Shown: one piece after another, positions 1,049-59,877 of the stretch | How the letters are laid out: each line of letters starts with the position of its first letter | Position numbering within the stretch: position 1 is the stretch's first letter | Assembly (NCBI GenBank): GCA_965649825.1 | Contig: OZ287695.1 | Span: 2,097,288-2,161,287, forward strand | DNA: 64,000 nt | Source of the DNA: Penicillus capitatus | Lineage: Eukaryota; Plantae; Chlorophyta | Reading direction: 5' to 3' | Position numbers and translations under genes: made by a program | Notes under the pieces: model-generated | Told to the model about the DNA's origin: nothing | What the model saw: the letters and a program-made list of their open reading frames with translations, nothing else | Database searches by the model: none

Positions 1049-1052
1049 ACAG
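1049..1052 (+). other. 4-bp target-site duplication ACAG (second copy 8025-8028)
   Basis: ACAG immediately precedes the 5' LTR and immediately follows the 3' LTR. Confidence 0.93.
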
Positions 1053-1359
1053 TGTTGTGTTAAGCCAACACGCCCCTAACAATGAGCTCATCTACTTACA
1101 CTTGTGTCGATCTCCAAGCGACAGGTCGTAGGTTCGCTACACCTTCCCATCCACAAATAGACCCGCGGCTCTACGTCACAGATTCCAAGTAGATTCCGGA
1201 ATCTTCGCAGAATATTCCTTCTTTGTTACTTAAAATAAAGTACCCTATAAAAGCTTTGTGAATGTACAGATCTTGTCTTTCGTTTGTAAGGCTTTACGTT
1301 TCAAAAGGTTTACGTGCGCCCACCACTCAAATTGTTCCCATCTAAAACCCTACGCGACA
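1053..1359 (+). repeat. 5' LTR
   Basis: TGTTGTGTTAAGCC...CCCTACGCGACA; no difference from 7718-8024 found by eye. Contains TATAAAA (1246-1252) and TGTAA (1285-1289, the chlorophyte poly(A) signal). Confidence 0.98.
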
Positions 1360-4300
1360 TGGTTTCGGAGCGAGTGCTCCCAATGCTGTTGTGGGTTCTA
1401 TGCTTTGCTACCGTCACGCACGGCGCATGGTTCGGCTGGAAGGATGGAATAGTAGAGTTACGGGATAAAACTCTAACAAGCATCCAGAACAACATCCGTA
1501 GTGGCGAAGACTGGATTGATGGATACATCGTTAACCTCGCCCACGACTTGAATACGAAGGAACCTGTCTTGTTTCAAGAAAAAGCGACGTCCACAATTCT
1601 ATACTGTACCACAGGGAAATGTGACTCGCTGACTAACGAAATCAGGGAGGAACCAGATCTGCATAAGGGAGGTTGCTTTCTGTACATCAAACCCCCGGGT
1701 GACTATTCGGTCGACGCCGGAATGCTGCAGAAAGAGATCGCAGAATTCGTCATCGGTTGTCCAAAGGGCATTATCTTTTACGATGCCACAGACGGAATAA
1801 CCATGGGCGAAGCCAACATGATGATCAAGCTTCTTAGCGAAGGTGCCAAGATCTACTGGGACGGACGACCTATATCGACAACCGACATCTCACTTTTTCT
1901 ACTCGTCCGAGGTGAACCCCATCCTGAGAATTGGGGCCAGAAGGAACTTCTGGACACGTCTAGACAGAGAGTGTACGATCTGACATACGGAGACCCTCGA
2001 AACGGCAAGAACGATTTCACCGTAATGTCGTCGGCGAGAGCTCTGCGCAGACGCTTCGGATACGCTATACCCGTAGCCGACCCCAAAGATCAAAGTGGAC
2101 TCTCTGCGGGACAGCGCCGATCAATCGAAAAGGAACAACTAGAAGAGAGATCTAAAGTGACGTACTCGGACGAAATTGATGAGATTGTCGATTCAGTCGA
2201 TACGTATCTAGAAGATGAATATGATGACATATATGTCGGAACCGAGCCTGGAGCATTAGATTTCGTGTACGCAATACCAGTCGAAGCGCAGCAAGATACG
2301 TACGAGGACACGGCAACCCCACAATCCGAGCCTGAAGTTGAGGCTACGCAGTCAGAGGAAGACCAAGGACCCGAACAGGAGCTTCCCCCAGAGAATGTCT
2401 TTGACATGCACGGATTAGGGGACGCTCTACCTCTCGACGCTAGAGAATCTTGGGCTGCGATCCCCGTTTGGATGAGAGACTTGGATATCACATGGCCGGA
2501 CTACGTAACGGAGATGATGACTAGCGCCGTCGTGGGCCTTACCACTCACGGAGTCATCAACTGGGTAGCAAACAGAGGGGTACTCTCCGTCTTCTACCCG
2601 ACTAATCTATTGACGACCGTCACAATTTCAGTCATCAACAACCTCCCATCTAGGCCAAAAATCGAGGGAGAACTGAAGGCCTTCAATGAGACATTGTACG
2701 ATTTGAACCAGTTTGAGAACATCTCGATAAGCGGTTCATCAACGAACTCTCAAGGCCAACAGGACTCCCAAGACACATGGGGCCCGAAAGGTTCAAATGA
2801 TGACTGGAAACGTCTCAACGACACACTGGACGAGATTAGGAAGACAATATATAGAATCAACGAACATACGGAAAATCTGAAGACGGCCCTCGACGAGTGC
2901 ATATGCGAGAGTCAAGTTACAGGTTGGGGAAACAGGCATGAGAATGAAACATTCCTCGACCGTTCCATAAAATGGCTAACCGGTGCCCGAGATAACGCGG
3001 TCACGTGGATGTTAGGCACGCTTTGGGATAAATTTGGACTCAGAGCAATTCGTAGTGCCCTGGCGACGGGGAACGGCTGGCAGTTGGTAGGCGCGGCTAT
3101 GCTTCTGTACAAGGTCGCTGTATGGATCTTGAATGTATTCAGGAACATCCGCAAGGTTGTGATGCGAATCGTAGCCATAACCCAGGGGATTTGCTGGCTA
3201 CTCAGAATCGTGTGGAATCTGATGCGGGGACATAAGGCTCAGGTGCAGCAACTGACTCAAGAACTGACCACCCAGCAGTCGTCACAGCAGCAGTCGCCAC
3301 CGCCATCTCAGCCGCCATTGGAACAGACACCACCGACGCCTACACAGCAGTCGCCACCGCCGTCATCCCAAGCACCGCCGCAGGAGTCATCGCCGTCATC
3401 CAGTCCTTCTCGTCCTGTCGCGCCATCTCAGTCGCCACCGCCACCGCAACATTCGGCACCACGACGGACAGACCAACAAAATACAGTGACGGAAATCCAC
3501 CCAGACCCGTCGCCGGAAGTCCGCCAAGACACTGAACAACGTGGCTTGATACAATCCTTGATGGAAAGTGTTCAAGCGATGCAAGATGGGCTTATGAGGC
3601 GCGCTGCAGAACTCGAGGACAGACTTGTCAATAGACAAGGGAGATTGGAAGAGGTTGTGGAGGCCAGCATACTTACTATCGGGCAACGAGTAGAAGCGGT
3701 TGAGGATCGGATGCGTATTCAGCAAGTCAGATGTGAGTCACCTCACCCTGAAACATCGCACGAGAACCAAGAAACAACCGAACGGAAAAAGAGTCGACAA
3801 ATACGTCAGGACTCAGACGAGCGTCGCCCTAGTGAAAGTGCAACTCCACACACTCCAAAAGGCCAGACTCCCAGTAGACGCGTCGAGAAGGATGGTCCCA
3901 CCATCAAGAACGTACACAAGCTGTTGCCAAAGCGTAAAGAGAATCTCTCACAGTTCACACGCAGAATGTCGAAGCTACTCGCATTGATAGATGACCCCGT
4001 CAAGTATGCTACGGCGACGGAGAGAATCTTTAATATTGCGAACGCACAAATCCAGTCGCGTCTGCGTGGACTACCATGGGGAGATGCAGGCAACTGGCCA
4101 CGTGTACAGAGGATCATCGACGAATGCTTGCAGGGAGGGCGGAATACACAAGGCAACGCTCCAAATAACGACAAGCAAGGCGTACAACAAGAGTACGGAC
4201 ACACCTGCGAGAGATGCAAGAAAAAAGGCCACTCCGGTAGAGACTGTCCTGTAATCGCGAAAGCCCCAAAGACGACAGAATCGGGGACTTTAGTACAAGC

Positions 4301-4715
4301 GAATCCGGTACAGCGCCAGAATTCTCAGAGGATGATACAGTATAATGTCCCACTCAACATGGAGAATATTGCCGGAAAAATCTCGTGCCTGTTGGACACC
4401 GGTGCGCAGACCAATATACTTCCGGCAAAGCTGGCAAGGAGACACAACTTGGTCCTCAGGTCGTCGAAGGTTAGAGATGTAACCAGCTTCAACAACCAGA
4501 CGACCAGGCCAAGTGGCGAGATCGCTTTGGTGTGTACCCTCGGGAAACAGAGCGCTGAGATTCCATTTGTCGTCTGTGATGGTGTCCAACGCCCGATTCT
4601 GGGAATGCAGGCCCTTCAAGCGTTCAAGTTGCAGCTCAACTGCGAGGAGGACGCAGTCTATGACGACAAAGGTAATAAAATACTCATCCACAACGTTTCT
4701 GTTTCAAAAAACTGA
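1359..4715 (+). CDS. gag: Env-like/Gag/protease polyprotein (signal peptide, AAA-like luminal domain, glycosylated segment, TM, Pro-rich region, CA-CTD-like, CCHC knuckle, aspartic protease)
   Basis: Uninterrupted frame. Signal-peptide-like MLLWVLCFATVTHG-AW; N-glycosylation sequons NET/NIS/NDT/NET; hydrophobic WQLVGAAMLLYKVAVWILNVF (about 3078-3140); CERCKKKGHSGRDC (4206-4247); LLDTGA (Asp at 4395). First ATG is 1359 (alternative 1383). Confidence 0.9.
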   Translation: MVSERVLPMLLWVLCFATVTHGAWFGWKDGIVELRDKTLTSIQNNIRSGEDWIDGYIVNLAHDLNTKEPVLFQEKATSTILYCTTGKCDSLTNEIREEPDLHKGGCFLYIKPPGDYSVDAGMLQKEIAEFVIGCPKGIIFYDATDGITMGEANMMIKLLSEGAKIYWDGRPISTTDISLFLLVRGEPHPENWGQKELLDTSRQRVYDLTYGDPRNGKNDFTVMSSARALRRRFGYAIPVADPKDQSGLSAGQRRSIEKEQLEERSKVTYSDEIDEIVDSVDTYLEDEYDDIYVGTEPGALDFVYAIPVEAQQDTYEDTATPQSEPEVEATQSEEDQGPEQELPPENVFDMHGLGDALPLDARESWAAIPVWMRDLDITWPDYVTEMMTSAVVGLTTHGVINWVANRGVLSVFYPTNLLTTVTISVINNLPSRPKIEGELKAFNETLYDLNQFENISISGSSTNSQGQQDSQDTWGPKGSNDDWKRLNDTLDEIRKTIYRINEHTENLKTALDECICESQVTGWGNRHENETFLDRSIKWLTGARDNAVTWMLGTLWDKFGLRAIRSALATGNGWQLVGAAMLLYKVAVWILNVFRNIRKVVMRIVAITQGICWLLRIVWNLMRGHKAQVQQLTQELTTQQSSQQQSPPPSQPPLEQTPPTPTQQSPPPSSQAPPQESSPSSSPSRPVAPSQSPPPPQHSAPRRTDQQNTVTEIHPDPSPEVRQDTEQRGLIQSLMESVQAMQDGLMRRAAELEDRLVNRQGRLEEVVEASILTIGQRVEAVEDRMRIQQVRCESPHPETSHENQETTERKKSRQIRQDSDERRPSESATPHTPKGQTPSRRVEKDGPTIKNVHKLLPKRKENLSQFTRRMSKLLALIDDPVKYATATERIFNIANAQIQSRLRGLPWGDAGNWPRVQRIIDECLQGGRNTQGNAPNNDKQGVQQEYGHTCERCKKKGHSGRDCPVIAKAPKTTESGTLVQANPVQRQNSQRMIQYNVPLNMENIAGKISCLLDTGAQTNILPAKLARRHNLVLRSSKVRDVTSFNNQTTRPSGEIALVCTLGKQSAEIPFVVCDGVQRPILGMQALQAFKLQLNCEEDAVYDDKGNKILIHNVSVSKN
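1360..1371 (+). promoter_or_regulatory. Primer-binding site, tRNA-iMet-like
   Basis: TGGTTTCGGAGC abuts the LTR end; it differs at two positions from the common plant iMet PBS TGGTATCAGAGC, one of them G:U-compatible. Confidence 0.75.
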
Positions 4716-4740
4716 GGGACCGGCCTGTTTTTCAGCAGGC
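4706..4740 (+). promoter_or_regulatory. -1 programmed ribosomal frameshift signal
   Basis: A_AAA_AAC heptamer (4706-4712) in correct phase right before the ORF1 TGA; GCCTGTT-TTTC-AGCAGGC stem-loop at 4723-4740; the -1 frame is stop-free from the heptamer into pol. Confidence 0.85.
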
Positions 4741-7708
4741 AGATGACGACTCGCAGACACCACAAATAAAACGCTTGGTATTAGTAAAGGCGAACTGGAA
4801 GGACGAGACACCTCAAGACAGACAGAAAGAATGGCCAACATCTTTAGCACTTCAAGTCACGGAATCCATCGATCGGGAGTTGTTCCCGTTCAAACAAAAC
4901 GGCTGGATCATCTTTATGGCAGGAAGAAGTTTTGTGCTGGGACCCTTTCGGAGCCGCCGCATCATTCTACCCTTCAAGTTTACCGAGACAACAGAATGGA
5001 GGGCATTTTTCGACTGTACTCATAACAAGAACATCTTCTGCAAAGTCAAGGTACACGCCAATGGTCAGATCAGCGTGGTAATCTTCAATCAATCCGATAC
5101 CCCACAACACGTCACCAGCAAGATGCGACTGTGCTGTGCTAAAGGAAACATTGATTCCATCACCGACGTCGATGGAACGGAGTACCCGCTGAAAGTGAAG
5201 ACCAAGCGTGTTAACAACATTAGCGTTCTTACACCAGTAGACAAGGATGCAACAGTGGCTCGGCTAAGAGAAGAATTTCCCCTGGTCTTTTCGGACACCA
5301 TTCGCCCGACGACCAGCAGGCTGTGGGATATCAGAGTACGCGACAGGGATCTTTGTTGGCAAGGCGAGCCTAAGCCATGCTGGAGGGAGAACTACGTCTC
5401 AGATCTCACCAACGAAGAGATCTCAAAAGAGATCGATTCTCTACACAAGGAGGGTGTTATACGACAGCTGTCTGTTGCGGAGGCAATACACGCTGTCGTA
5501 GCACCTTTAAACTTTATACGCAAACCGAATGGCAAGATCCGGCCCACCATTGACTTCCGCGACATCAACACGTACCTCGAAGGGACGCAAGGGGGGACCA
5601 TCATTCCGGTGTCCAACATCATTCAGAAGGTGGATCCCAAGTGGACCGTATACACCATCGTGGACATTGTTCACGGCTACGGCTCCATCCCCATCGACGA
5701 CGATATTTCGCTTTTCTTTGCCCTACATTGGAACGGCGTGACGTACGGCTTTCGGAGACTGCCGCAAGGCGTCAACGTCAGTCCGGAGCTTTTCAATAAC
5801 CGCATGACCCACATCCTGCAAGGGTTGGATGTGGTACGATACTTCGATGACATATTGATCGGCGGCGAAACTGAGGAGGAACTCCTCGACAAGACCAAGC
5901 TTTTATTGAAACGTTTCGACGAATATGGCCTGACAATCAACTGTCAAAAGTGCGACTGGTTTGAGACGTCAGTAAGCTTTCTGGGTACCGAACTCAGTGG
6001 TGGGACGCTAAACCCGTACCACAGGGCCCAGGCAATACTCCAGAAGCTGCCGACAATCACATCACGTCACGACGTTCAGAAGGCCATGGGTCTGTGCCAG
6101 CAACTGGCACAGTACTGTTACAAATACGACGCGATCGTCACGCAACTCAAGCCATTCCTGAAACGCGAACACAATGACTACACCAAAGCTGACGAGATCT
6201 ACAAGGACGCAGTTCAATCTCTGTGCATCAGTACGTACCGACTGACGTTGGAAAGAAGGGAGCCATTCCATCTGTACACGGATTGGTGTGGTAACCCACT
6301 CAACCAGTTCGGATACGTATTGCTTAACTCGACCTTGCAACCTGTTCTCTTTGGCTCCTTCACGACGAAACAGAGGGTCGGAAGTTTTCTGGGAGAACTG
6401 ATGGGGATAGTACGGGCCTTGAAGGAATGTTACTTTGTGATCAAGCAGACGGAGGTATTCGTTTACTCCGACAACATGGCTACAGTCAATTGGCTCAAGG
6501 AGCCGACATTCCTGCACAAGTTCAAGGACCTCCGGATCCAGAGACAGCATTGCTGGCTCCGGCACCACTTTTCCCATGATCGTCTCCACTTCTGTTTTGT
6601 AGAAGGGAAGGACAACGTGATAGCGGATCTTCTCAGCCGATGGAGAGACAACGCGCCTGTCGAATTTCACACCAAGAAGAAGCAACAGGGATATCAGGTA
6701 AACTCCATATCCCTTACTCCGGAAGAACGGACCGAGCTCATCAAAAAGGCTCATGCAGGCCACTTCGGGGTCAAGAAGACATTCCTGAACCTGCGGTCCG
6801 ACGGAACCCGCTGGACGAACGACTTCAATGACGTGCGAGATTACGTCAATAACTGCGAGACGTGCCAAATGTTTCGCAACCCACGGTCGGAAGTGGACTT
6901 GGGTATGATTGACAGTCCATCCCCGAACCACACACTGTGTCTAGACTTCATAGGACCGCTGAACCGTGGCAGCCACGGGTTTCGGTATATCGCTACCGGA
7001 ATCGATGCTTTCACTAAGTTCGGCGTGGGGCGTCTATGCAAGACCTGCTCAGCAGCACAGGCTATCAAGCTGGTACTCGAATGGGCACGAAAGTTTGGGG
7101 CTCCGCAAAGAATCCTGTGCGACAACGGAAGCGCCTTCATTGCTAGGAGCTTCGAAAGTACTTGCACACAGCACGGAATAGATATTTTACACACCCCAGC
7201 CTATTCCCACAAAAGTGCGGGCACTGTCGAAGCGTTCAACCGAAACCTCGTAAACCGACTTAGGCGGATATGGGCGGAAAGGAGAGGTGATTGGACGACA
7301 CATGTGAGCACGAGCGTACAAGAGATCAACCGAACGATCCATAGTACGACTCTGTTCTGTCCACAATACCTTCTAACTGGCACACAACGGGATGGCACGA
7401 TAACTAGTCCACAACAGCTGGACACCGACCGAGGACTAGCTTATCAACGAATAATTAAGGCACACCAGCAAAATAAGACAAGACACCACAAGAAAGTCAA
7501 GAACCGTCCCATGGAAGTGGGAGCAGAGGTCTCGTGGTACAACACGCAGCTGGCCGACCGCCTCGACTCCAAACTCTACTCCAAATGGGTCTATCCTTGT
7601 GTGGTGGTGAAGAAACATAGTGACCACCGTTGGGATATCCGTATGCCCAATGGTTCGACACTGCACAATGTCCATCGTGACTTCCTTCGGAGATTAGACA
7701 GAAGATAG
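4709..7708 (+). CDS. pol: Pol (-1 frame): dUTPase-like remnant, reverse transcriptase, RNase H, integrase
   Basis: RT: RKPNGKIRPTIDFRDIN, LPQG, YFDD. RNase H: LYTD, GELMG, YSDN, NVIADLLSR. IN: HAGHFG...CETC, LDFIGP, CDNGSAF, VEAFNR. No in-frame stops. Confidence 0.97.
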   Translation, partial: KLRDRPVFQQADDDSQTPQIKRLVLVKANWKDETPQDRQKEWPTSLALQVTESIDRELFPFKQNGWIIFMAGRSFVLGPFRSRRIILPFKFTETTEWRAFFDCTHNKNIFCKVKVHANGQISVVIFNQSDTPQHVTSKMRLCCAKGNIDSITDVDGTEYPLKVKTKRVNNISVLTPVDKDATVARLREEFPLVFSDTIRPTTSRLWDIRVRDRDLCWQGEPKPCWRENYVSDLTNEEISKEIDSLHKEGVIRQLSVAEAIHAVVAPLNFIRKPNGKIRPTIDFRDINTYLEGTQGGTIIPVSNIIQKVDPKWTVYTIVDIVHGYGSIPIDDDISLFFALHWNGVTYGFRRLPQGVNVSPELFNNRMTHILQGLDVVRYFDDILIGGETEEELLDKTKLLLKRFDEYGLTINCQKCDWFETSVSFLGTELSGGTLNPYHRAQAILQKLPTITSRHDVQKAMGLCQQLAQYCYKYDAIVTQLKPFLKREHNDYTKADEIYKDAVQSLCISTYRLTLERREPFHLYTDWCGNPLNQFGYVLLNSTLQPVLFGSFTTKQRVGSFLGELMGIVRALKECYFVIKQTEVFVYSDNMATVNWLKEPTFLHKFKDLRIQRQHCWLRHHFSHDRLHFCFVEGKDNVIADLLSRWRDNAPVEFHTKKKQQGYQVNSISLTPEERTELIKKAHAGHFGVKKTFLNLRSDGTRWTNDFNDVRDYVNNCETCQMFRNPRSEVDLGMIDSPSPNHTLCLDFIGPLNRGSHGFRYIATGIDAFTKFGVGRLCKTCSAAQAIKLVLEWARKFGAPQRILCDNGSAFIARSFESTCTQHGIDILHTPAYSHKSAGTVEAFNRNLVNRLRRIWAERRGDWTTHVSTSVQEINRTIHSTTLFCPQYLLTGTQRDGTITSPQQLDTDRGLAYQRIIKAHQQNKTRHHKKVKNRPMEVGAEVSWYNTQLADRLDSKLYSKWVYPCVVVKKHSDHRWDIRMPNGSTLHNVHRDFLRRLDRR

Positions 7709-7713
7709 GTGGG
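7690..7713 (+). promoter_or_regulatory. Polypurine tract (imperfect)
   Basis: GAGATTAGACAGAAGATAGGTGGG then CCCA directly before the 3' LTR; overlaps the pol stop codon; TGGGCCCA palindrome at 7710-7717. Confidence 0.6.
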
Positions 7714-7717
7714 CCCA

Positions 7718-8024
7718 TGTTGTGTTAAGCCAACACGCCCCTAACAATGAGCTCATCTACTTACACTTGTGTCGATCTCCAAGCGACAGGTCGTAGGTTC
7801 GCTACACCTTCCCATCCACAAATAGACCCGCGGCTCTACGTCACAGATTCCAAGTAGATTCCGGAATCTTCGCAGAATATTCCTTCTTTGTTACTTAAAA
7901 TAAAGTACCCTATAAAAGCTTTGTGAATGTACAGATCTTGTCTTTCGTTTGTAAGGCTTTACGTTTCAAAAGGTTTACGTGCGCCCACCACTCAAATTGT
8001 TCCCATCTAAAACCCTACGCGACA
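7718..8024 (+). repeat. 3' LTR
   Basis: Direct copy of 1053-1359, followed by the TSD copy ACAG at 8025-8028. Confidence 0.98.
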
Positions 8025-8713
8025 ACAGAGGTAAGTGGAGAAAAAACTAGTGAGTCCTCGACCTTTTTCCAGTCTTTGTGGCAGGGCTTTCTAGGCAGAT
8101 GAGCCACTACATTGCCAGAGCCAGAGAAGAGGGCCCTTTAGAAGTCAGTGCGCCCATGCGACAAGACAACCAGCGCCCCATGAAAACACGACACCCTTTC
8201 TCAACAAGACAGTCACATCGACAAAGGAAATCTTGGCGACACTAGACTCGGACACAATATGTGTGTGATTCGTTGAGTTGGAGATCTCGGGTACAGATTG
8301 GATTCGACGTAAGCGTCAGGAAACGACGATTCCGTATCACGACTAACAGGGTATGGATTTTTTGCTGGATGCTTCACTCCGTTATCTCGAGCTTCTGACG
8401 AAACTAACAAACAGCACACTAACATTGATGGGATTGTTAAAAAAACTGGATTAAGTCTGCATTCGACTGATTGTGTGAGTGACGGGTATGCGATAACGAT
8501 TGCGGCCCCGCGGACTGGACAGGGTGTCCGCTTCCTGACGTGACAGGGGTCCGCGGGCGCCGAGGGTACTTAAGTGACGTGTACGCCTCACCATGTAGCT
8601 TTTGCATTGGCTCGTGGCTGTCTCCTCCGTTCGGCTCTGCGCGTTCGCGCGACTGCGGCGCGTCTGTCGACACGCGATTCCCGACAGTGAGCCTTCATTA
8701 AAAGCGAAGGTAA

Positions 8714-11701: not shown

Positions 11702-14700
11702 ATGTCTCGAAGAGGTAAACTTCGTGTTTGTCGAGGTTGTAGAGTTTTTCTCTGTTAAGGAACATCCTCTCGCCATCTGTGCCATCTCTTTTTGAGAACT
11801 GGAACATGCAAGTTTGGCGCGTGTAAATTCTCGCACGAGACTTCGGATCCGGAAGAAGTGGCGAGAGCAGAAAAAGATGCCAACGATTATAGGCTCTTTC
11901 ACAAAAAAGAGATTTGCAAGCTCTTCAGCAGAACAGGAAAATGCATTAACGGAAACAACTGTCGCTTCCTACACGCCAGCGAGGCTGAAGTCCTGAGCGG
12001 ATCCGTCAACGACGAAACGGATCATCTCGACGTCTTCACGTAGGTTCACAATGCTCGATCTTTCACCGCCAAAACCCCTTTCCGTAGTATACTCGTTGAC
12101 AAAAGGATGGAGAATGTTTCGGCGAGGCAAGTCGAAATGTTTATTCAATACATGGAGCGCTGTCTCAGAAACAACGATGGAACCAGAAAATGCTCGGTTC
12201 TCGAGACACTCGGTAGTGCGACCGGCGGGGAGATTCTGTGCAACCTGTTCGGCAGACCGAAGCGATTTGTGCTTCGACAAGCCACAACGAATGGACAAGT
12301 CAGCAGCTTACTTAATTCTAATTAGCAAAGAATTGTTGCACCAGGTGTCTTTTCTTCACACCTTTGTTCCCTTCTTGAAGCTGGTCACATCTCCTTTGAT
12401 TTTGGCAGCAGCGTTGCAGAATTATGTGAACACATTTCTGCAGGCCCTGGGGCAGTCTTTTCAGTGGGCAGAGCTACATCCAGTTCTTGAAGAACTCCTT
12501 CCTGTCGAAGAACCAAGAAGCGGCTTGGGATCTCTTCTTTCCTTCCTGAGCTTCTCATCAAACTCATCGACCCAGCAAAGCTCTGGCTCAGAAATTGACA
12601 ATTGGATGGACATCGTATATCCATTTGTGTTCTTCTTGCTGGAACTCCTTCGAAGATTTGATGACCGCTTTCTCCGAGAGATTGCGGAACTCCGTCCGTA
12701 TATCGAGAGAATGATGCGTCGTGTGCCCATCGATTTTTGTCATCCTGACCGACAACACAGACAGTTTGCACAACACATCATTGATTTTTCAAAGCAAGCA
12801 TTCTACCGTTCGAATCTCTTGTTGATCTAGCATTTGAATTAGTCTCTTCGAACAAAAAACTGGGAGGGGTGAGATGAGTGACGAGGTAACAAGGCAACTC
12901 GAAAGGATACACATCCCGCAAAAAACTCAGAAAGCACAAGACACTCTCTATGCAGAACCGCCAGGTAAGTCCTCTGCACATGTAAAGTAAACAAGAACCA
13001 TTAGCAGGTATACTTCGTCCTCAAGGACCAAGGCACGACAACGACCACAGCGACATCACAAGAATTCAGATTGCCCCGACCGAAGATGAAGTCCTTTCCG
13101 ATATTCCACCATATCTTCCTCCAAATAGGCATGTCGTTCTTTTTGGAAAAGGAATGTCATACTATCACAGGGCTGGATCTGTCGTACATATGCCTCCTGG
13201 TAGTGTGGCAGCTCACCGGGTCCTGCACTTCCGCTTACTGCGTCATAACTTGGTGTCAGACATCCAGACCGCGATTCGCACTTTCATGGAAAATGGAGGA
13301 ATCAAAACTCTCAAAACTCTGGTGACGCTAAGCTGCCAATTGAATGTTGCTTTCTTGACAGCATTTGGAAAGCAGGACCGTCAAAGAAAGACAGTTGCCG
13401 AAGGCTTTGAGACCAGGGATGTTGTGATTGACACATACAGACATGCAAAGGTCGTTTCGATGGATGCCAACCTACATTCTGGAATCTATTATAAGGTGCA
13501 TTTAGTGCTTCAATAATATTTGGATCGTTTTTTGTTACCTTAACAGATTGAATGCGCTGAACCAGATTTTATCAAAAAATCGTCAAAACATCAGAAGTTG
13601 GTTTTCTGGGAGAGAACACAACGATTGTCTCATGGTTCGTTGGTCTGCTTGTGGTGGCTTTCAGACAATTCACCTCGTCCCAATATCGTCTTTGGGGTTA
13701 TCGTAGAGCATAATCCAGATAACCTAGCAGACTCTCGTCCATGTTTCGGAATCAAGTAAGTCATTCATTGCTCTTGATTTTGTAAGAAGACCTCTTCAGG
13801 TCGATCCCGGAGCCTTACAATGACAAACTCATTTCTCTCTTAATGAAAGAGAAAGAAGACCTCCAGGTATCGGAAGTGGTGTTGCTGCAAGCAGGTCCCA
13901 GCTTCTTCGCATTCGATCCGATCTTGAAAGCACTAAAGACAGCTCCTATCCCTCTCGCTCATATCATTGCACAACCTCCACTAATGGTGAATACATAGAA
14001 AAACAGATTATTGACAAATCTTGTATGTCTAACAGCCGAACACAGACAGACAGATAGTAACCTTACCTGAATACGCTGAGGTCGGTGGAACTTTTAATCT
14101 CGAATTCCTTGTCCAGGGCGGACGTAATTCCCCGTCGTGGTATATATATCAGTTGAACTTTTTGTTGACATACGTGAACGGTGTTGCAGGATGGCAAAGT
14201 TCAATGCGGCGGCTCCTGATCATTTTCCAATGGAAGAAGTCCTTAGACAGACCACCCTTGACAAATCTCAGGCAGAAGCATTGAAAGCTGCGCTCACACA
14301 GGAGGTTGCTTTGATCCAGGGCCCTCCAGGAACAGGTGCGATTGCTTGTTTGTTTTACATATACCGAGATCAAACATTTGATACCAACAGGAAAGACCTA
14401 CGTCGGGATACAGATCGTTCGTGCACTCCTGACCTTTGAAGCCACTCACCAAATTCCTGTCAATCTCCCTGCGACAGTTACAAAGCCAGGAGATTCTGTC
14501 AGTCCGATCCTATGTGTCTGTTACACAAATCATGCTCTGGATCAGTTCCTCTGTGGTTTGCTTATGGTCGGAATTGACAACATCGTTCGACTTGGAGGAG
14601 GCAGTCGGTGCGAGGAAATCGAACCATATCATCTCAAGAACAGACCAAAGCGAGGAACTGGAGCCAGAGGCTATGAGCTGTTGCGGAAAAAACTGCCAGA

Positions 14701-17700
14701 ACTAGAGGAGAGAATACGCAACATCGATTCCTATCTCAGGGAATCCAACCAGAGGTGCATAACGTTTGTTCTTTTAATGCCTCTGATATTTGTAGCCATT
14801 TAGCTTGCTCAAATGGCATCAGATCAAGGATGTCATTTTGGAACACTGTCCGCAGTTTCTACATTTTCTTGCAAGTGGCAGTTCCACTAGCGATGGCGAT
14901 TATGAATCGGAAACTCTGCCGCTCGCATGGACATCCTGGTGTCGTATGTATTCGAACTATCGAAAGCACGAAAGGCCGAATGCCGCGTTCATTCAAAATC
15001 GTCCCGTGGAGGTATTGCTGCAAATGGACGATTTTCATGAGATCTCTCCTGGCGAACACAAGACATTGTATGACTATTGGACTCAAGAAGCAAGAAAGGC
15101 AGCTATTGGTGGGGTCCAAAGACTAATGGGAGAATACGGACGATGCATAGAGGAATTTGCAGAATTAAGAAGCTCGTCTGTTCTGGACTGTTTGAGAACA
15201 GCATCCGTTGTGGGGACGACAACGACATATGTGGCAATACATCAAGAACTCCTGGCTGGACTCCGACCCAAGATTGTGATTCTCGAAGAGGCAGCTGAGG
15301 TTCTGGAAGCCCATGTCCTGACATCACTTTCCTTGAGCACTCAGCAATTGATTATGATCGGAGATCACGAGCAACTTCGCCCGAGATTGGACAACTTCTT
15401 ACTCCAAAAGCAATCGGAGTTAGGATTCAATCTCGATGTCTCCCTGTTCGAAAGGCTGATCACCGAGAACAATGTCAACCACGTCACGCTCCGAAGTCAG
15501 CGAAGAATGCGTCCGTCATTCTCGAGGTCCTTATGCAACTAATTTTGCCTCCGGATGATGTTGTCCTCTTAGGCTCCTCCGATCGACGATATACCCTGAC
15601 CTTCAGGATCATGTCTCTGTGACAGAATATCCGTCAGCCGTTCCTGGGATGGAAAAGACGTTGTTCTTTTTCGATCATGACCATGAAGAGGGTGGTATGG
15701 CAGATGACAGGTCCAAGAGCAACGTCTTCGAAGCTCAATTTGCCATCCACCTCGCCATCCACTTGTTAAAGCAGGGCTGCTTCGAACCAGGTTTGTTCCT
15801 GCATCACGGTTCGGTGATCGAATGTATCCTTAGACGACATTGCCATCGTGACTCCGTATCTGGGGCAGCTTCTGCAGCTCCGAAAGCACAGTAATGAGTT
15901 TTCTCTTCGAATGCGAATTGACGGCAAAGATGAGTTCTATCTTGGCGAACTTCTTGCCGATTACGTAGAAACTGGTGATTCATCCATTCTACTGTATCAG
16001 TATCGCAAGTCAGCTTCTTGTTCTTTCAGATAATCCAGAAAATCCTGGAGAAGACGTTCAAGAAGATCATGTCCATCGAGTTCCGAACATGATGAATGAG
16101 TCAAAACAGGCAAAGCGTTCCGAGCAGTCGTACGTGCGTCTGGCAACTGTCGACAACTTTCAAGTGAACTGCCATCCATCATTGCACTGAACAAAGTTAG
16201 TTCGGATCTCAGGGAGAGGAGGCAAGAATCGTCATACTGTCCCTCGTCAGGAATCAGAAAGAAGGACACATCGGGTTCATCGGAATCAAGAACAGGATCA
16301 GCGTTATGCTCTCGAGAGCAAAGGAAGGGATGTACATTCTTGGAAACTGTCAGTCACTCGAAGCCTACAGCAAGAACACCGTATGGAGGGATATCTTGCA
16401 TCTGATGAGAAACGAGGGTTGTGTTGGAACCGAGTTGAAGGTAGTTTGGCAGGCTCATCAATAACGGATCCTATTGTTCTCTTGTTTGAGTTGCAATGCC
16501 AAAACCATCCGGAGAACATAACGAAGGTTTCACACTGGAAGGACTTCGATCTTCTAGTCGCGGATGGAGGCTGCCGGGAACCTTGCGGCCAGCAGTTACC
16601 GTGTGGCCATATCTGCGGACGGTAATATCAGCTAAGGACGTGGGACCTTTCTTGATTGCCTGTCTTCCTGACAGGCGGTGCCATATGACGAACAGGGACC
16701 ACAAAGAAAACGATTGTGCTGTCCCCGTCAGTATCGAGTTTCCCTGTGGCCATGTCAAGACCGATGTTCCGTGCCGAGAGTACGTCTCTTATCCAGCTGC
16801 CTCGAATGACAGCGTGTCTCCGGCAGAGTGACCAATGCCAAAGAATTTCTCTGTGATGAGTACGTTGAAGTCAGAGTGGTGGGATGCCCCCATGGTCACA
16901 GATATCGTGTGAAATCCTCTCAGGCAGAGTGTTTCTCTGAGAACCCAAAAAACTGCACTGAGAGAGTCACTGTTCGTATGCCGATGTGTGGACACGAGAT
17001 CAGAGTGCCCTGTCACCAAGAGCCTACAGTCCTGGATAATCCAAGTAGATGTGCCGAAAGATGCCGCCGATTGATCGAAGGTTGCGGTCACAAGTGTAAA
17101 AGAAAATGCGGAGAGTGTCTTGGCCGAACGCTGGAGAAGAATCCTGATTTCGTACTGTCAGCGTCAAATGCTCAGTTGATTGATCACGGAGAGTGCAAAT
17201 CTCGTTGTGGCAAGACACTTCTGTGCGGCCACAAATGCGAAGCAAAGTGTCACCCAGGTGAGATGTCTGATCTCTAACCATTCTCAATACCATATGCAGA
17301 CCGTGAAGTCTGTTGGCCTTGTCAACAAGAATGCTCTATCGTCTGCGAGCATCGAAAACATGGCTGTCAGAAGAACTGCTCAGAGCCGTGTGTTTCCTGT
17401 GCCGAACCCTGTTCATGGAAGTGCGAGCATCAAGGAGAATGCGATCTGCCATGTGGGACACCATGCAACCGATTGCCATGCGACCGGCGTTGCGCCAAGA
17501 CACTTACATGTGGCTGTCGCTGTCCTTCTCTTTGCGGAGAGGAATGCCCCTCAACTGATTTTTGTCATGTGCATGGGCGCCCTAGAATCAAAAAAATGGT
17601 CCGTCATCCTTCTCATATGGACACTTTTAAGTTCCTCTGCGTTGCAGGAGGTGGATATGATCATATTCCGTAAGTATGGCGACCTCACGGATGAGGAACT

Positions 17701-19250
17701 CACTCAGGATCCATTGATCGTGCTCAGCTGCGGCCACGCTTTCCTGACATCCACTCTCGATGCTCACATGGGCATCACAGAATTCTACCAGAAAGACAGA
17801 CTCGGAAGGTAGTTAGCTCAATTTTGATGGAGTGATTTCGGAATACGCGTTGCAGATGGATAAGACCAATCTTTGGAGAACGATTGCGTCAGTTCGACAA
17901 TAGAAAGACATGCATGCTGTGCCGGCAGCAGCCCATTGTATCTGTTCGTCGATACGGACGCATCATCAACAAGACAGCGATCGATCTTACGGAGAGAGTG
18001 TTTTACCAACGATTCTCTCAGAATCACGCTCGAGTCGACGCTGAGATCGCACAACTTGCATGGGAACTTAAAGATATAGAAACCAGCGGGTCGGGTACTC
18101 TTAAGAGTCCATCAACAGTGCATGATCTGGATAGAATTCGAAAAAGAGCCGTGATCGGAGCTGAAGACTATAAGGAACTCATTGTCGTTTCGCAACGGTA
18201 TTCAGTCCTCGTTTGCTCACACGGTTTATTGTTCTGCTGTAGTACTCCATCCATTGATATCTACAGGCAAATTCGTTCCTCGGTACTCGATAAGGCGAAG
18301 GAAGAGGAGTTGTCACAGGAAGAGATCGATGCCGAACTTAGTCGTCTGACTGTTCCAAAACCTGATCCGTCTAGAGCCTGCAAGTAATATCTTTCAGTTC
18401 TCTTCGTGATCGTACTTCAACATCACGCAGGCCATACATTGGCCTCCTCTACTGCCGTCGACTCTGGTTTCAATGTCAACATTGCGCCATTAGAACTCTG
18501 GAAGTTCGCAGAAACGCGAATTTTGCTTCTTCTCGTCGAGCAGTAGATCGCTCATATAATATGCATTGCTGTCAGTAATACCGTTCCTTGTAGATTAAGT
18601 CATATCAAGAGATTGTCGACGACGGTTCAGCAATGATTCGAACTGCTTACTCTGATGTAGAAGAGCTAGTTAAAGCGGCACAGGAGTCGCTGAGCAACAA
18701 GGCAATGACAGATGCGTTCACAGATTCTGTCCAAGTCTATCTAGAGATCTTGAAATTTGTCACAACAGCGGCGAGCTGTACACTGGGTGACGTCTTAAAT
18801 GCAGATTCGCCTTTTCACCGTCAAAATGTCGAAGAATTGCAAAGCACGATATTGATGAAGGCTGAAGATGGAATATCGAGTGCCCTTAAGTTTTGCAGAT
18901 TTTTTGCTGAGGTATAGGAAAAATATGTATAGCATTCATCACTTCTTCTGACAATACTGTGGCCCATTCAGAGAACAAAGATAAGAAGGCATCAGTCGGA
19001 GCTACAAGTCTTAAAGCGGGGCATTGTTCAACTTGCCATTGAAGATCAGATGAGACTTCTGAAGACGATTGTTGCTGTCGATCCACATCTAAGTGAGCCT
19101 CGAACGCGTGGCTATTTGCATCGATGTCCCAATGGTCATTGGTGTAACATTGATGAATGTGGAAGAGCAATGGAACAGCATCGCTGCCCAGATTGCGGAG
19201 AAATCATTGGCGGCTGCAGTCACGGGCTGTCTTCCGGAATAGGCGCATAA
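11702..19250 (+). CDS. ZNFX1: ZNFX1/Hrr1-like SF1 helicase with two N-terminal CCCH fingers, NF-X1 zinc fingers and C-terminal RZ finger (multi-exon)
   Basis: Spliced motifs QGPPGT|GKT, ILEEAAEVLEAH, IGDHEQLRP, SLFERL, TVDNFQ|GEE, NVMLSRA; repeated LPCGH/CGHKC fingers; LSCGHAFLTSTLDAHMG; YLHRCPNGHWCNIDECGRAMEQHRCPDCGEIIGG. Confidence 0.92.
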
Positions 19251-27262: not shown

Positions 27263-30200
27263 TCACGGCCGCCATTTCTGCGAAACCTTTGAGCTCTCGT
27301 CTCGCCGCAGAAACTCCGCGAGTCGTGGCGAATACTTCCCACTCTTCATTCTCTGTCTGGCCACCACATCATGGGCAGCCGTTTTCGAAGACAGATGCTT
27401 GCTGTGCTTTTCCCGGTTCTCCTTCACCACGCCACTCGCCCAATCGCCATACCGATTCAGTAATGTACTGTTCTCGTGGCGCAGCGTATCTGCCTTCTGT
27501 CTCATCACAGCATAAGCATCTTTGGCCGATTGGGCTTCGGAAACGGCACGTTCGATCGATAGATGTGAAGCAGAGAGATCCGATTCGAGGTGTTTGTTGC
27601 GCTCGACACTGCGCTCGAGATTCTTTTGGATGCATTTGCGGGAGGCCTCTTCGGCTTCCATAGCAGCGACGAGATCCTCGATCATTTTGCTTTTCTCTCC
27701 TAGTTTTAGCTTCAACTCAGCAACGGCGTTTTCTTTCTCTTGGAGATCTCGCCGTCTCTGCGTCTCATTCTCTCTCTTTTCTTCCATCGTCGACTGGAGT
27801 GTCATTTCTTTCTCGGCCACGAGGGCAGACAGTCGCGAGATCTCTTTCTTTATCACTGTGATTTTGTCCTTTGCCTCCACGAGCTGCTCCTGAGCACGTG
27901 CCGCTTCATCGTGACTCCGTTCTTTCTCAGCCGTCGACTCCGAGATCTAACACCGACAGAAACTGTCTCTATGCAAGCTCGAGATCCAAAGCACTTGGCG
28001 TTTGAATTTTTCTCTCTCTGTGTTATGCGATTCTTGCGTCGCCTTGAGCTGACCCGTGAGCGAACGTAATGTCTCGCTGAACTGATGGATCTGAGCATCC
28101 CTCTCGGCGATCTCCTCCGACGATCTCTCAAGAACACTCGTCTTTTCATCCTCACTGACCTCCAACTGCATCGCACCGCTTCAAATGATCATCTCTGAGC
28201 CACTCTATTTATCACCTTTTTTCTCAGATGTTTGATTTCTTCCCTGAGATGCACACATTGTAAGGCCTCTCGCTGCAAATCCTCTTCCATCTCCGTCATC
28301 CTCTCGCCATAAGATGCCGCGTTCTGTTTCAGGCGTTGTTCTTGGAAGGAAAGCTGATCCTACAGCAGACAACGCACGCGTGAGCTCGTTTGGCACATCG
28401 CGGTCATAGCTCAGTGGGAGAGCGTCAGACTGAAGATCTGAAGGCCCCGTGATCGATCCACGGTGACCGCATCCTTTTCGTCACGCACTTTTGTCCTTTT
28501 CAATTCCTCCTGCCCGTCTTCAACTTCTCGCGTCTGCTGTTTGCAACGCCCCTCCACCAAACTCAGTTCGTTCTTGAGATTCGACCATTTGGCATGGAGA
28601 GACTCCTTCTCTCGCAGCGTCTCCTCTTGCACGTCACTCAGAGCAGCGACCTCCGTCTGAACCTCCTTCAATGATTTCTTGAGGTTACGGATCTCAGCCA
28701 TATATGCTGTCTCCTTCTTCTAAACACAAACCGTAGAGCTGCACATCTATGGATCGACAGTGCAGATCTCGAAGTTATACTTTACTGTCATGTTTTATGC
28801 CTTCGAGCTTTGTCTTGGTCTCGGCAGACCATTCCGATTCCTTCCGCTTGTGATCGTGAACCGACATCTCGTGCTTCTCTTTGAGTCGGACGTGTTGTTT
28901 CAGCAAATCTCGATGCGCTTCTCTCTCGTTCTTTAAAGACTGTTTGAGATCCTTCGTCTCCTCTTCGAGATGGATCTTCTCTTTTTGCAGAGATGCTGTG
29001 AGAGATTGAGAGGCTTCGACTTCACTGGCCAATCGCTTGGCCTCACTCTTTTCCCCAGAAATGATGTGACATTCTTTTACGTTGGATGCTATTGTACCTG
29101 ATGTTTGGCAACGAGGAGACGTTCTTGGCTCAGAAAATCGTGGACGGTGTCGATCTCTTCCTCCATGACGTTTCTTCGCTCTTCGCTCGATTCCAGTTCC
29201 CGTTGAAGACGGCAGCATCGTGCCTCACTCTCTTTGCTTCGTTCTAAACAGTGTGATGCAGCTTCATTTTAAGTAAGAGGCATCTTCTCACACCTTTTTC
29301 CTGAGCTTCTCCGGACTGTCGTGCCTGGCACTCTTTTGTTAATTGTTGTGCTTTGAGTGTCAGTGCATTGACAGTGCCTTCCAAATACGTGCTTCGATTG
29401 CTGAGCTGCTCACACTCTTTCTTGATTTCGTGAAGCCTGAATCAAACTCTCTTCACAGAAGGTGATGCAAATTGGCGCCGACTTCTGTGTGCGTTCCTTA
29501 AGCATCGCGCCGCTTTCTGCCAGCTGTTCCGTGAGATGTCGACATGTGACATGCTGCCGCTGCATCTCCTCTGCTTGTCGCGTTGCCTGTTCTCTGATCT
29601 GATCACATTCTTTTTCGACCAAGACCAAACGATCGGTCTTCGCTTTATCATCTGCCTCGAGCCTCAGCCTCAGACAATGCTCATCGCGAAGCCTGTAACG
29701 ATATGCACATCTTTCTCTGCGACGGCAAGAATCCGGTTTGCAGCTGTAGACCTTCTTTGCAGTTCCTTGAGACGGTCATCGTGTGTCTTCAGTGCCGCTC
29801 TCAGCGCCGTCTGTCCCTTCTCCATTCAAACACGCTGACCGTTCGTTTGCGATGATCACCTCCTCTTCTGCTTTTGCAGAGAGATCGTTTGTCAACGTCT
29901 GCAGATCCTGTTCAAACCGTGCTCTTTCCTGCATCACACAGAGCCTCTCTCACGATGAGCGTCCAAATGCCTGCAATGGTCGAGAGACCGTTTTTTGATC
30001 CGTTTTCAGTCGAAGGAGCTCTTTTGCCAATGCCTCGTTCGCCGTTACCAGATCCTGCATCATTAGAGATCCCATCTCCTGTATGCCGCACACCAGAGCC
30101 TACTGAAATCGTATTGTCTTTGTAAGCATTCCATCGATTTTGCAGGTCCTTATCAAAGGCTCGCTGTCCTCCTTTTAACAGATAGTTTTTTGGATGGAAG

Positions 30201-36051: not shown

Positions 36052-36592
36052 TTAGGGCTTCTTCACAACGACGATCTTTTTCTTCGGGACCGGGATGGGT
36101 TCTGGCTTCTTCACGACCACCACTTTCTTCGGAACCGGGTTGGGTTCTGGCTTCTTCACGACCACCACTTTCTTCGGGTCCGGGATGGGTTCTGGCTTCT
36201 TCACGACGACGACTTTGGGCTTCGGGTCCGGGATGACTTTTGGCTTCACGACGACGACTTTGGGCTTCGGGTCCGGGATGACTTTTGGCTTCACGACCAC
36301 CGGTGGTTTACCGCCATGCATTAATTGGCGCTGCGGTGTACCCGCTATCGCCTCCCCAATCCCAACCATATCATCTTCCGTTGCGGAACTGTCCGGCAAA
36401 ACGCGTGACTCTGGGGCGGTTACACAACGCATCGTTAACGGAGAAATGTATTCCGTAGAAAGTTACCTGCGCAAAGAGCAAAGCAACAAAGTAGAACCTG
36501 CGACACAGTGACGCGAGTCAGAAAACAGGTTGTCGGAGAGAACGATAAGCAGGATGTACGCAGAAGAGGGTTCCGGAACGTGCAGGACGCAT
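36052..36592 (-). CDS. Secreted Pro/Lys/Val-rich repeat protein (putative cell-wall protein)
   Basis: Hand-spliced MRPARSGTLFC|VLLCCFALCA|ESRVLP... signal peptide, then five 15-16 aa repeats of the KPKVIPDPKPKVVVV / KKPEPIPDPKKVVVV type. Confidence 0.7.
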
Positions 36593-59703: not shown

Positions 59704-59877
59704 GTGGCGTCATCTGTTCTCTCTCAGTCTTTCGCCGAGATGGATGGATTCGTCTACTGTCTGGATAGACGCACGTCCCGTTTCATGAGTGTGCCGTCAT
59801 CTGTTCTTTCTCAGTCTTTCGCTGAGATGGATGCTTACGTGTACTGTCCGGATAGACGCACGTCGCGTTTTATGAGT
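59704..59877 (+). repeat. Two-copy 87-bp tandem duplication
   Basis: 59704-59790 and 59791-59877 are near-identical; differences are mostly at third codon positions. Confidence 0.9.

Follow-up and report, generated by a model that had tools for sequence, protein, structure and literature searches.

A 64,000-nucleotide (nt) stretch of the Penicillus capitatus genome (assembly GCA_965649825.1, contig OZ287695.1, forward strand 2,097,288 to 2,161,287; hereafter the window, whose numbering is used throughout) harbors an intact, recently inserted Ty3/gypsy-type long terminal repeat (LTR) retrotransposon at positions 1053-8024. Its first open reading frame (ORF1; 1359-4715, forward strand) encodes 1118 amino acids (aa), uninterrupted by stops, in which a secretory/membrane module is fused in frame ahead of Gag and protease. 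This fusion is a family-wide trait. The N-terminal domain of the module (aa 23-240, here called the head) is, by sequence comparison, homologous to cellular proteins of green algae. It is predicted to be an ATPase-dead AAA+ fold that keeps the arginine-finger residue, and it likely works like the corresponding domain of the torsin cofactors LAP1 and LULL1, although we do not claim membership of that family.

A secretory/membrane module ahead of Gag-protease

Signal-peptide and transmembrane calls (Table 1) were made solely from hydropathy (Kyte-Doolittle scale, 19-aa window), which peaks at aa 1-19 (1.63), 408-426 (1.54; nt 2580-2636), 576-594 (1.93; nt 3084-3140) and 600-618 (1.79). The ORF1 features noticed in a sequence-only reading of this DNA are all present, as judged from hydropathy, motif positions and Pfam; the peak at 600-618 was not among them. 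An MVSER start followed by a hydrophobic run is common to 11 proteins, that of the window and 10 relatives. Acidic composition spans aa 241-360. The conserved middle segment comprises a moderately hydrophobic stretch (386-426), four N-glycosylation sequons (aa 443, 454, 487 and 529), a heptad helix (481-517) with hydrophobic residues at eight of its ten a/d positions, a CIC motif (514-516) and a Trp-rich amphipathic helix. Basic residues follow the 576-594 helix, and the adjoining segment (595-626) is likely a cytosolic juxtamembrane helix, possibly a second transmembrane pass. The composition of aa 626-720 is rich in Pro, Gln and Ser. Gag is unusual in having a single conserved block of about 80 aa between the long helix and the zinc knuckle. 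This block (aa 846-925) is the best conserved part of ORF1 outside the signal, at 85% to the most divergent full copies; its position suggests the capsid label, and aa 838-929 have no match in Pfam or the PDB. The AlphaFold model of full-length ORF1, built from five alignment rows, has a predicted local distance difference test score (pLDDT) of 32.

Other copies with the same fusion, a search for which the sequence-only reading had called, were indeed found. In all four matches to ORF1 the N-terminal domain and the protease lie in one ORF, and three of the four have a signal-like start; P0006 starts inside the head domain. The cluster member P0041 is a fifth fused copy. In Logan contigs of other copies, the listed insertions and deletions within ORF1 (12 of the 14 rows were listed) are in frame or compensated within one contig, and those within the LTRs measure 1-2 nt. 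The 40 best-supported of 305 substitutions between 1359 and 3400 include 21 synonymous changes, where 11.9 would be expected (p 0.002), and none that creates a stop. In P0031, from a sister family, a signal-like start and the head domain continue into an integrase that shares 86% identity with P0008; the head domains of the two families are 34% identical and both keep the Cys and Arg motifs described below.

Two side observations concern the structure of these copies. P0031 and P0042, members of one cluster, have a 515-aa ORF in which the leader and most of the head are joined directly to integrase; from its sequence this ORF is apparently an internal-deletion derivative. The ORF1 copies are also mosaic. 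In alignment A1 (P0003-P0006 and P0041), the head of P0006 resembles that of P0005, its membrane region that of the window and its knuckle-protease part that of P0003, a pattern that suggests frequent recombination.

The ORF1 start codon at 1359 consists of the final A of the 5′ LTR and the TG that opens the primer-binding site (PBS), with the PBS itself encoding MVSER. A purine at -3 and a G at +4 surround this ATG. The LTR carries TATAAA at 1246 and TGTAA at 1285, which we take to be the TATA box and a green-algal polyadenylation signal, respectively. If TATAAA sets the start of transcription, ATG 1359 would be the first of the transcript and in strong context. Compared with what we take to be the initiator-Met PBS, the sequence at 1359-1373 shows two mismatches, both at silent third codon positions. 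A tRNA scan of the window for the partner of the PBS gave tRNA-Phe alone (a tRNA-Phe(GAA) gene at 28400-28471).

A predicted pseudo-AAA+ head with cellular homologues in green algae

Modeling of aa 23-240 by AlphaFold from a 17-row alignment gave a pLDDT of 82.6 and a predicted template-modeling score (pTM) of 0.85. Profiles of the head match the AAA+ domain of Skd3/CLPB at E 4e-5 and 4e-6. Foldseek ranked TorsinA first for the model, and the top template-modeling scores among the matches listed were those of LULL1 (0.61) and LAP1 (0.56). In a VIA search of 48,161 chains LULL1 came first (Z 13.4, root-mean-square deviation (rmsd) 4.3, 198 residues aligned), the next score being 11.2; in a second VIA comparison LAP1 (Z 13.4, rmsd 3.8, 193 aligned) equaled LULL1 (13.4), ahead of Skd3/ClpB (11.8) and TorsinA (11.4). 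Matches to aa 23-240 in the ESM Atlas all scored below 0.9, and the Torsin clusters among them (0.79-0.81) serve as a lead only. Viral structures fit the model less well (best TMq 0.46). A viral origin of the head was considered and rejected on account of these weaker matches and of the cellular homologues described below.

The motifs of the domain are consistent with a dead ATPase. A Cys83/Cys88 pair occupies the Walker A position in 16/16 rows, DE occurs at the Walker B position in none of 15, and 13 of 14 have Arg in the Arg232 column. As placed by the secondary structure of the model, Arg232 lies at the arginine-finger position, where the helix leading to the last strand ends, and the predicted fold lacks the C-terminal lid. 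LAP1, in the account of Sosa et al. (PMC4358337), has an AAA+ fold without the C-terminal domain, no Walker A motif, a degenerate Walker B motif and a conserved Arg at the end of helix 5. The element thus shares with LAP1/LULL1 a predicted lid-less AAA+ fold, the absence of Walker A and B, the Arg ending the last helix before the last strand and a likely luminal location. Whereas LAP1 and LULL1 are type II proteins, the order in the element is that of type I, its domain being N-terminal and Gag forming the tail. Absence of any Cys between aa 135 and 513 leaves no room for the LAP1-type disulfide linking helix 1 to the C-terminus; unlike LAP1/LULL1, the head has a local 83/88 pair instead and no C-terminal Cys.

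A phmmer search of 1.84 billion proteins with the head returned 14 matches, including P0039 from Chlorella ohadii (E 2.9e-4) and P0033 (E 7.9e-9), and a head profile (12 matches among 7,998 scored) then brought in proteins of Chlorella and of Micractinium, with E values from 1e-34 to 1e-71. Named homologues include KAI7844878.1 and PRW61089.1 of Chlorella, as well as proteins of Micractinium. Most of the algal proteins run from a SAP domain through a low-complexity region and one hydrophobic helix to the domain itself, which is present once or twice. An N-terminal SAP match was found in 4 of the 8 scanned, and one dominant hydrophobic peak ahead of the domain in all 4 tested. The helix-then-domain order of the Chlorella homologues resembles that of type II LAP1. 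These SAP-transmembrane-AAA-like proteins have the same Cys pair and Arg motif as the homologous head of the element, and differ from the element in their SAP-bearing N-terminal part and in carrying one or two domain copies. Together, P0039, P0047-P0054, P0033 and P0040 apparently represent an undescribed green-algal SAP-helix-pseudo-AAA+ family.

P0033 is the product of an intronless cellular gene flanked by a DUF493 gene and a fumarase gene; no retroelement was seen in its 2.5-kilobase contig. In a domain tree (14 rows, unrooted, three short fragments left out) it groups with the element domains on a long branch (98/99). On these sequence data, capture of the head from a host gene is likely. 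Two further details of P0033 (L001:1055-1951) may be mentioned: a start at one of two in-frame ATGs (1055 and 1076) would give the protein a basic N-terminal tail ahead of its hydrophobic stretch and make it type II, and its C-terminal residue is Cys, while LAP1, too, nearly ends in Cys.

The sequence-only reading had interpreted ORF1 as an Env-like glycoprotein fused upstream of Gag-protease. An in-frame secretory/membrane module does precede Gag-protease. The Env-like label is not supported for the head, whose predicted dead AAA+ fold is nearest LAP1/LULL1 and which has cellular green-algal homologues.

Possible role at the nuclear envelope and alternative explanations

We propose that a membrane anchor holds Gag at the cytosolic side of the endoplasmic reticulum (ER) or outer nuclear membrane, where the luminal LAP1-like head would engage host nuclear-envelope machinery and aid nuclear delivery; to this combination, drawn from sequence and models, we give an even chance of being right. 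Translation would begin at the LTR/PBS ATG and the signal peptide would be cleaved. With a single membrane pass (at 576-594) or with three, in either case an odd number, the head would end up in the lumen and Gag-protease in the cytosol, and Gag-protease-Pol, produced by -1 frameshifting, would also lie on the cytosolic face of the ER or outer nuclear membrane. The type I topology put forward by the sequence-only reading, with Gag tethered to the ER or nuclear envelope, is indeed the simplest reading of the hydropathy profile, which is its sole basis. As a LAP1 mimic, the head would bind a host torsin-type ATPase, or a host SAP-transmembrane-AAA-like protein, across the perinuclear space. Such binding would hold particle assembly at the nuclear envelope, a place of membrane remodeling by torsin systems; complementary DNA and integrase would thereby be helped into a nucleus whose envelope may stay closed, and the protease would free capsid and nucleocapsid from the membrane anchor. 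The head domain would originally have been acquired from a host gene. Multinucleate life cycles favor closed mitosis in another lineage (PMC11153136). Closed mitosis, should it also apply to the host of the element, would reward a dedicated nuclear entry route. Torsins exist outside animals, in kinetoplastids (PMC10903960). Nuclear-pore biogenesis and blebs of the envelope have been linked to torsins and their cofactors (PMC7175109), and torsins are discussed in connection with vesicle transport across the nuclear envelope (PMC4701712).

A bolder form of the proposal, and in our view a rather unlikely one, is herpesvirus nuclear egress in reverse: anchored, capsid-reduced Gag would bud through the outer nuclear membrane, the LAP1 mimic would recruit a torsin-type machine and the particle would traverse the perinuclear space and merge with the inner membrane, bypassing the pores.

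Several observations weigh against a Gag-bound LAP1 mimic at the nuclear envelope. The LAP1 likeness may be convergent, through decay of a Clp-type domain, because the head is only 10-12% identical to LAP1/LULL1 and, even with E values of up to 1 allowed, none of the 17 rows matches LAP1 or Torsin in Pfam. The alignment behind the head model included host proteins. The domain tree is unrooted as to the direction of capture, and only 32% of the bootstrap trees have a branch that separates the element domains from all others. Location of the host homologues at the nuclear envelope would follow from their SAP-helix layout, and a torsin partner in green algae is assumed. The topology comes from hydropathy only: the 576-594 helix includes a lysine, and two passes may place Gag in the lumen. 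Three of the four sequons are column-conserved in 5/5 rows of alignment A1. Conserved sequons were considered as a strong sign of luminal location and rejected: their count in aa 436-535 is borderline (4 against a shuffle mean of 1.6, p 0.053) and two sequons in the protease, expected to be cytosolic, are equally column-conserved in A1. The divergent P0028 has just two sequons. As to the fusion, the ORF1 search behind the count of four in four was blind to split forms. A length-free search with the head gave 14 matches, eight of which are pieces shorter than 210 aa, and P0028, at 393 aa, breaks off within the Pro/Gln spacer and does not reach Gag. The short pieces and P0028 may be decayed copies; they may also reflect real separation.

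This last possibility bears on a different explanation, in which soluble Gag, produced from an internal start, by splicing or by early protease release, builds the particles, and the membrane form is an accessory akin to the glyco-Gag of murine leukemia virus (MLV), its head acting as decoy or modulator of nuclear-envelope machinery. We regard this as improbable, though the strongest of the alternatives. Besides the ending of P0028 before Gag, it draws on Met codons at aa 735, 741 and 746, right after the spacer, and on a donor-like GTAAG at 1286 that could splice to a Gag-only message and so also counts against the anchored-Gag proposal. Glyco-Gag itself is a precedent for a second, signal-bearing form of Gag (PMC3042739). 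In that account, an N-terminally extended Gag enters the ER, as would the ORF1 product. The extension, though, comprises 88 cytosolic aa in MLV, where Gag is glycosylated in the lumen and the protein is an extra product, against about 625 aa in the element, where Gag is predicted to be cytosolic. An accessory role agrees poorly with the position of ATG 1359, the first after the putative TATA-defined start and in strong context, with the retention of the single ORF in five relatives and with the absence of a donor-like GTRAG between the PBS and position 3400.

Another possibility, unlikely in our estimate, is that aa 346-625 form a class I-like fusion subunit and the head its receptor-binding subunit, enveloped particles budding into the ER or perinuclear lumen or leaving the cell. 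The sequence-only reading had leaned this way. The order of features (hydrophobic peptide, heptads, Cys pair, Trp-rich membrane-proximal helix, transmembrane segment) and the clean heptad at 481-517 fit that description, and the segment is conserved, at 60-64% in divergent copies and 28% over a longer stretch in P0028. What does not fit is that aa 346-625 find no match, to a fusion protein or otherwise, in Pfam, PDB sequences or the ESM Atlas (queried with aa 340-635), and that RxxR occurs in the N-terminal module only at 227 and 562, never directly before the hydrophobic stretch. Enveloped infectious particles are a minority reading for these reasons; the likely cellular origin of the head and the borderline sequons argue in the same direction. 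Proteins with a signal peptide and transmembrane segment are also carried by errantiviruses (env) and, as extra ORFs, by plant retrotransposons. These are fusogens of F or gB type, or ORFs without assignment, and most stand apart from the other genes, 3′ of pol (PMC13524379, PMC7264820, PMC6317226), whereas the module of the present element lies in ORF1. Neumann et al. mention elements with extra ORFs inside the polyprotein, which were removed from their analysis, and rotifer elements capture varied ORF3s (PMC5408684).

A Ty1-like scheme appears very doubtful. Here the whole ORF1 product, Gag included, would enter the ER lumen through passes at 576-594 and 600-618, Gag would later return to the cytosol, and the head would mainly target translating RNA to the ER. 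The second hydrophobic peak (600-618) is in its favor, as is the entry of Ty1 Gag into the ER via the signal recognition particle (PMC3945221). The element would share with Ty1 the nucleation of particle assembly at the ER; unlike the element, Ty1 in that account has no dedicated luminal domain or anchor. The strongly amphipathic and basic character of helix 595-626 speaks against a second pass, and the scheme leaves the kept Arg and Cys pattern of the head unexplained. Finally, retroelements do transduce pieces of host genes (PMC7264820), yet it is hardly credible that the head is a host fragment transduced once and carried without function, given that two families, with 34% identity between their domains, both hold it in frame and conserve the Cys and Arg motifs, and that synonymous changes are in excess over 1359-3400.

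Pol, insertion site, neighboring genes and wider bearing

The two LTRs, 307 nt each with TG...CA ends, are 100% identical to one another. One Logan contig (run X2) connects position 995 directly to 8087, skipping the element; from its sequence, it likely marks an empty allele, the element being apparently polymorphic. The C-terminal residues of ORF1 are the same in all four homologues from the ORF1 search, and a -1 frameshift at the slippery heptamer likely leads into pol, judging from the sequence; the stability of a downstream stimulator hairpin was not above chance (z 1.01). The domain order is protease, reverse transcriptase (RT), RNase H and integrase by Pfam, the RNase H families scoring below cut-off. 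No chromodomain was matched in pol by Pfam, and the ORF list of the window is empty from the end of pol to the 3′ LTR. The pre-RT domain (4760-5230) is conserved in relatives down to 30% identity; its resemblance to a degenerate dUTPase found no Pfam or PDB support.

Table 1. Features of the retrotransposon (window coordinates).
Feature	Position	Strand	Basis or remark
Left target-site duplication, ACAG	1049..1052	+	4 bp; second copy at 8025-8028
5′ LTR, 307 nt, TG...CA	1053..1359	+	Identical to 3′ LTR
Start codon and PBS (PBS = codons 1-5)	1359..1371	+	Sequence
Predicted cleavable signal peptide, aa 1-22	1359..1424	+	Hydropathy peak; hydrophobic run after MVSER
LAP1/LULL1-like pseudo-AAA+ domain, aa 23-240	1425..2078	+	Homology, model, motifs
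Acidic linker of variable length, aa 241-345	2079..2393	+	Composition, alignment
Conserved middle segment, aa 346-575	2394..3083	+	Alignment; no database match
Predicted transmembrane helix, aa 576-594	3084..3140	+	Hydropathy
Basic amphipathic helix, aa 595-626	3141..3236	+	Hydrophobic moment 1.1-1.9
Pro/Gln/Ser-rich spacer, then predicted long helix (aa 721-790)	3237..3728	+	Low-confidence model
Putative capsid-like helical domain, aa 846-925, ~80 aa	3894..4133	+	Conservation
CCHC zinc knuckle, aa 949-964	4203..4250	+	Pfam E 0.016, below cut-off; passes in P0006
Aspartic protease, aa 1008-1087, DTG at 4395-4403	4356..4637	+	Pfam E 4.6e-7
pol: conserved pre-RT domain, RT, RNase H, integrase	4679..7708	+	Pfam and alignment; -1 frame relative to ORF1
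A AAA AAC slippery heptamer, just 5′ of ORF1 stop	4706..4712	+	Sequence
Purine-rich tract preceding 3′ LTR	7689..7713	+	Sequence
3′ LTR	7718..8024	+	Sequence comparison

The element shares with Ty3/gypsy elements (Metaviridae) its LTRs, PBS, purine tract, 4-bp duplication, the order of gag-protease followed by RT, RNase H and integrase, and the likely -1 frameshift. It differs from them in the secretory/membrane module of about 625 aa before Gag, in the single capsid-like block of about 80 aa and in the long branch of its RT lineage. Among solved structures, those nearest to pol are Ty3 (E 4e-21) and then foamy virus (4e-15), a ranking by similarity rather than a rooted tree. A search for pol homologues (7,993 candidates scored) gave 21 matches including the window's own: four close at 42-70% identity (one from Caulerpa lentillifera), two at 30-31% and 14 weak at 22-33%. 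Proteins of C. lentillifera (56%) are the sole close named relatives. The RT phylogeny suggested by the sequence-only reading (21 rows, without named references) places the five close rows in one long-branched group (100/99), apart from 14 other elements. P0012 and P0013 represent a deeper sister lineage of pol, at 30% identity. Scans based on pol for related loci found nothing in viral or metagenome contigs.

Elsewhere in the window, exons at 39301-47344 (reverse strand) look like one large gene or a cluster, with helicase-like parts and a eukaryotic RNA-dependent RNA polymerase domain (41442-42863, Pfam E 3e-76); by sequence they may possibly encode an RNA-silencing helicase-polymerase fusion. 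Exons at 11750-17800 (forward strand) resemble a gene for a superfamily 1 helicase of NFX1 type with CCCH zinc fingers; the one exon scanned had no Pfam match. A further gene is nearest to the 2-Cys peroxiredoxins 6j13 and chloroplastic BAS1. This gene and the named relatives of the element, every one of them chlorophyte, point to a green alga as the likely host, and the Caulerpa match would by itself suggest a bryopsidalean, multinucleate one. A coding-like tandem repeat (five copies of a 45-48-nt unit) occupies 36061-36309, and an 87-nt duplication lies at 59704-59877.

Searches of the open-access literature turned up neither a retrotransposon bearing a torsin-cofactor-like domain nor a LAP1-like family in green algae, and two reviews of nuclear-envelope evolution are, in the parts considered, silent on such a family (PMC7889174, PMC3198171). 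A Bryopsis preprint handles repeats by class only in its main text (10.1101/2023.11.22.568388). The physiological role of torsins has been called largely enigmatic (PMC7175109). An undescribed green-algal LAP1/LULL1-like family bears on the age of the torsin system, and the reverse-egress reading, if true, would imply a LAP1/torsin system in green algae. Entry of retroelements into an intact nucleus is usually ascribed to pores or mitosis. If our proposal is correct, a mimic of an inner-nuclear-membrane cofactor carried on Gag would constitute a new entry route and a new kind of host-gene capture.

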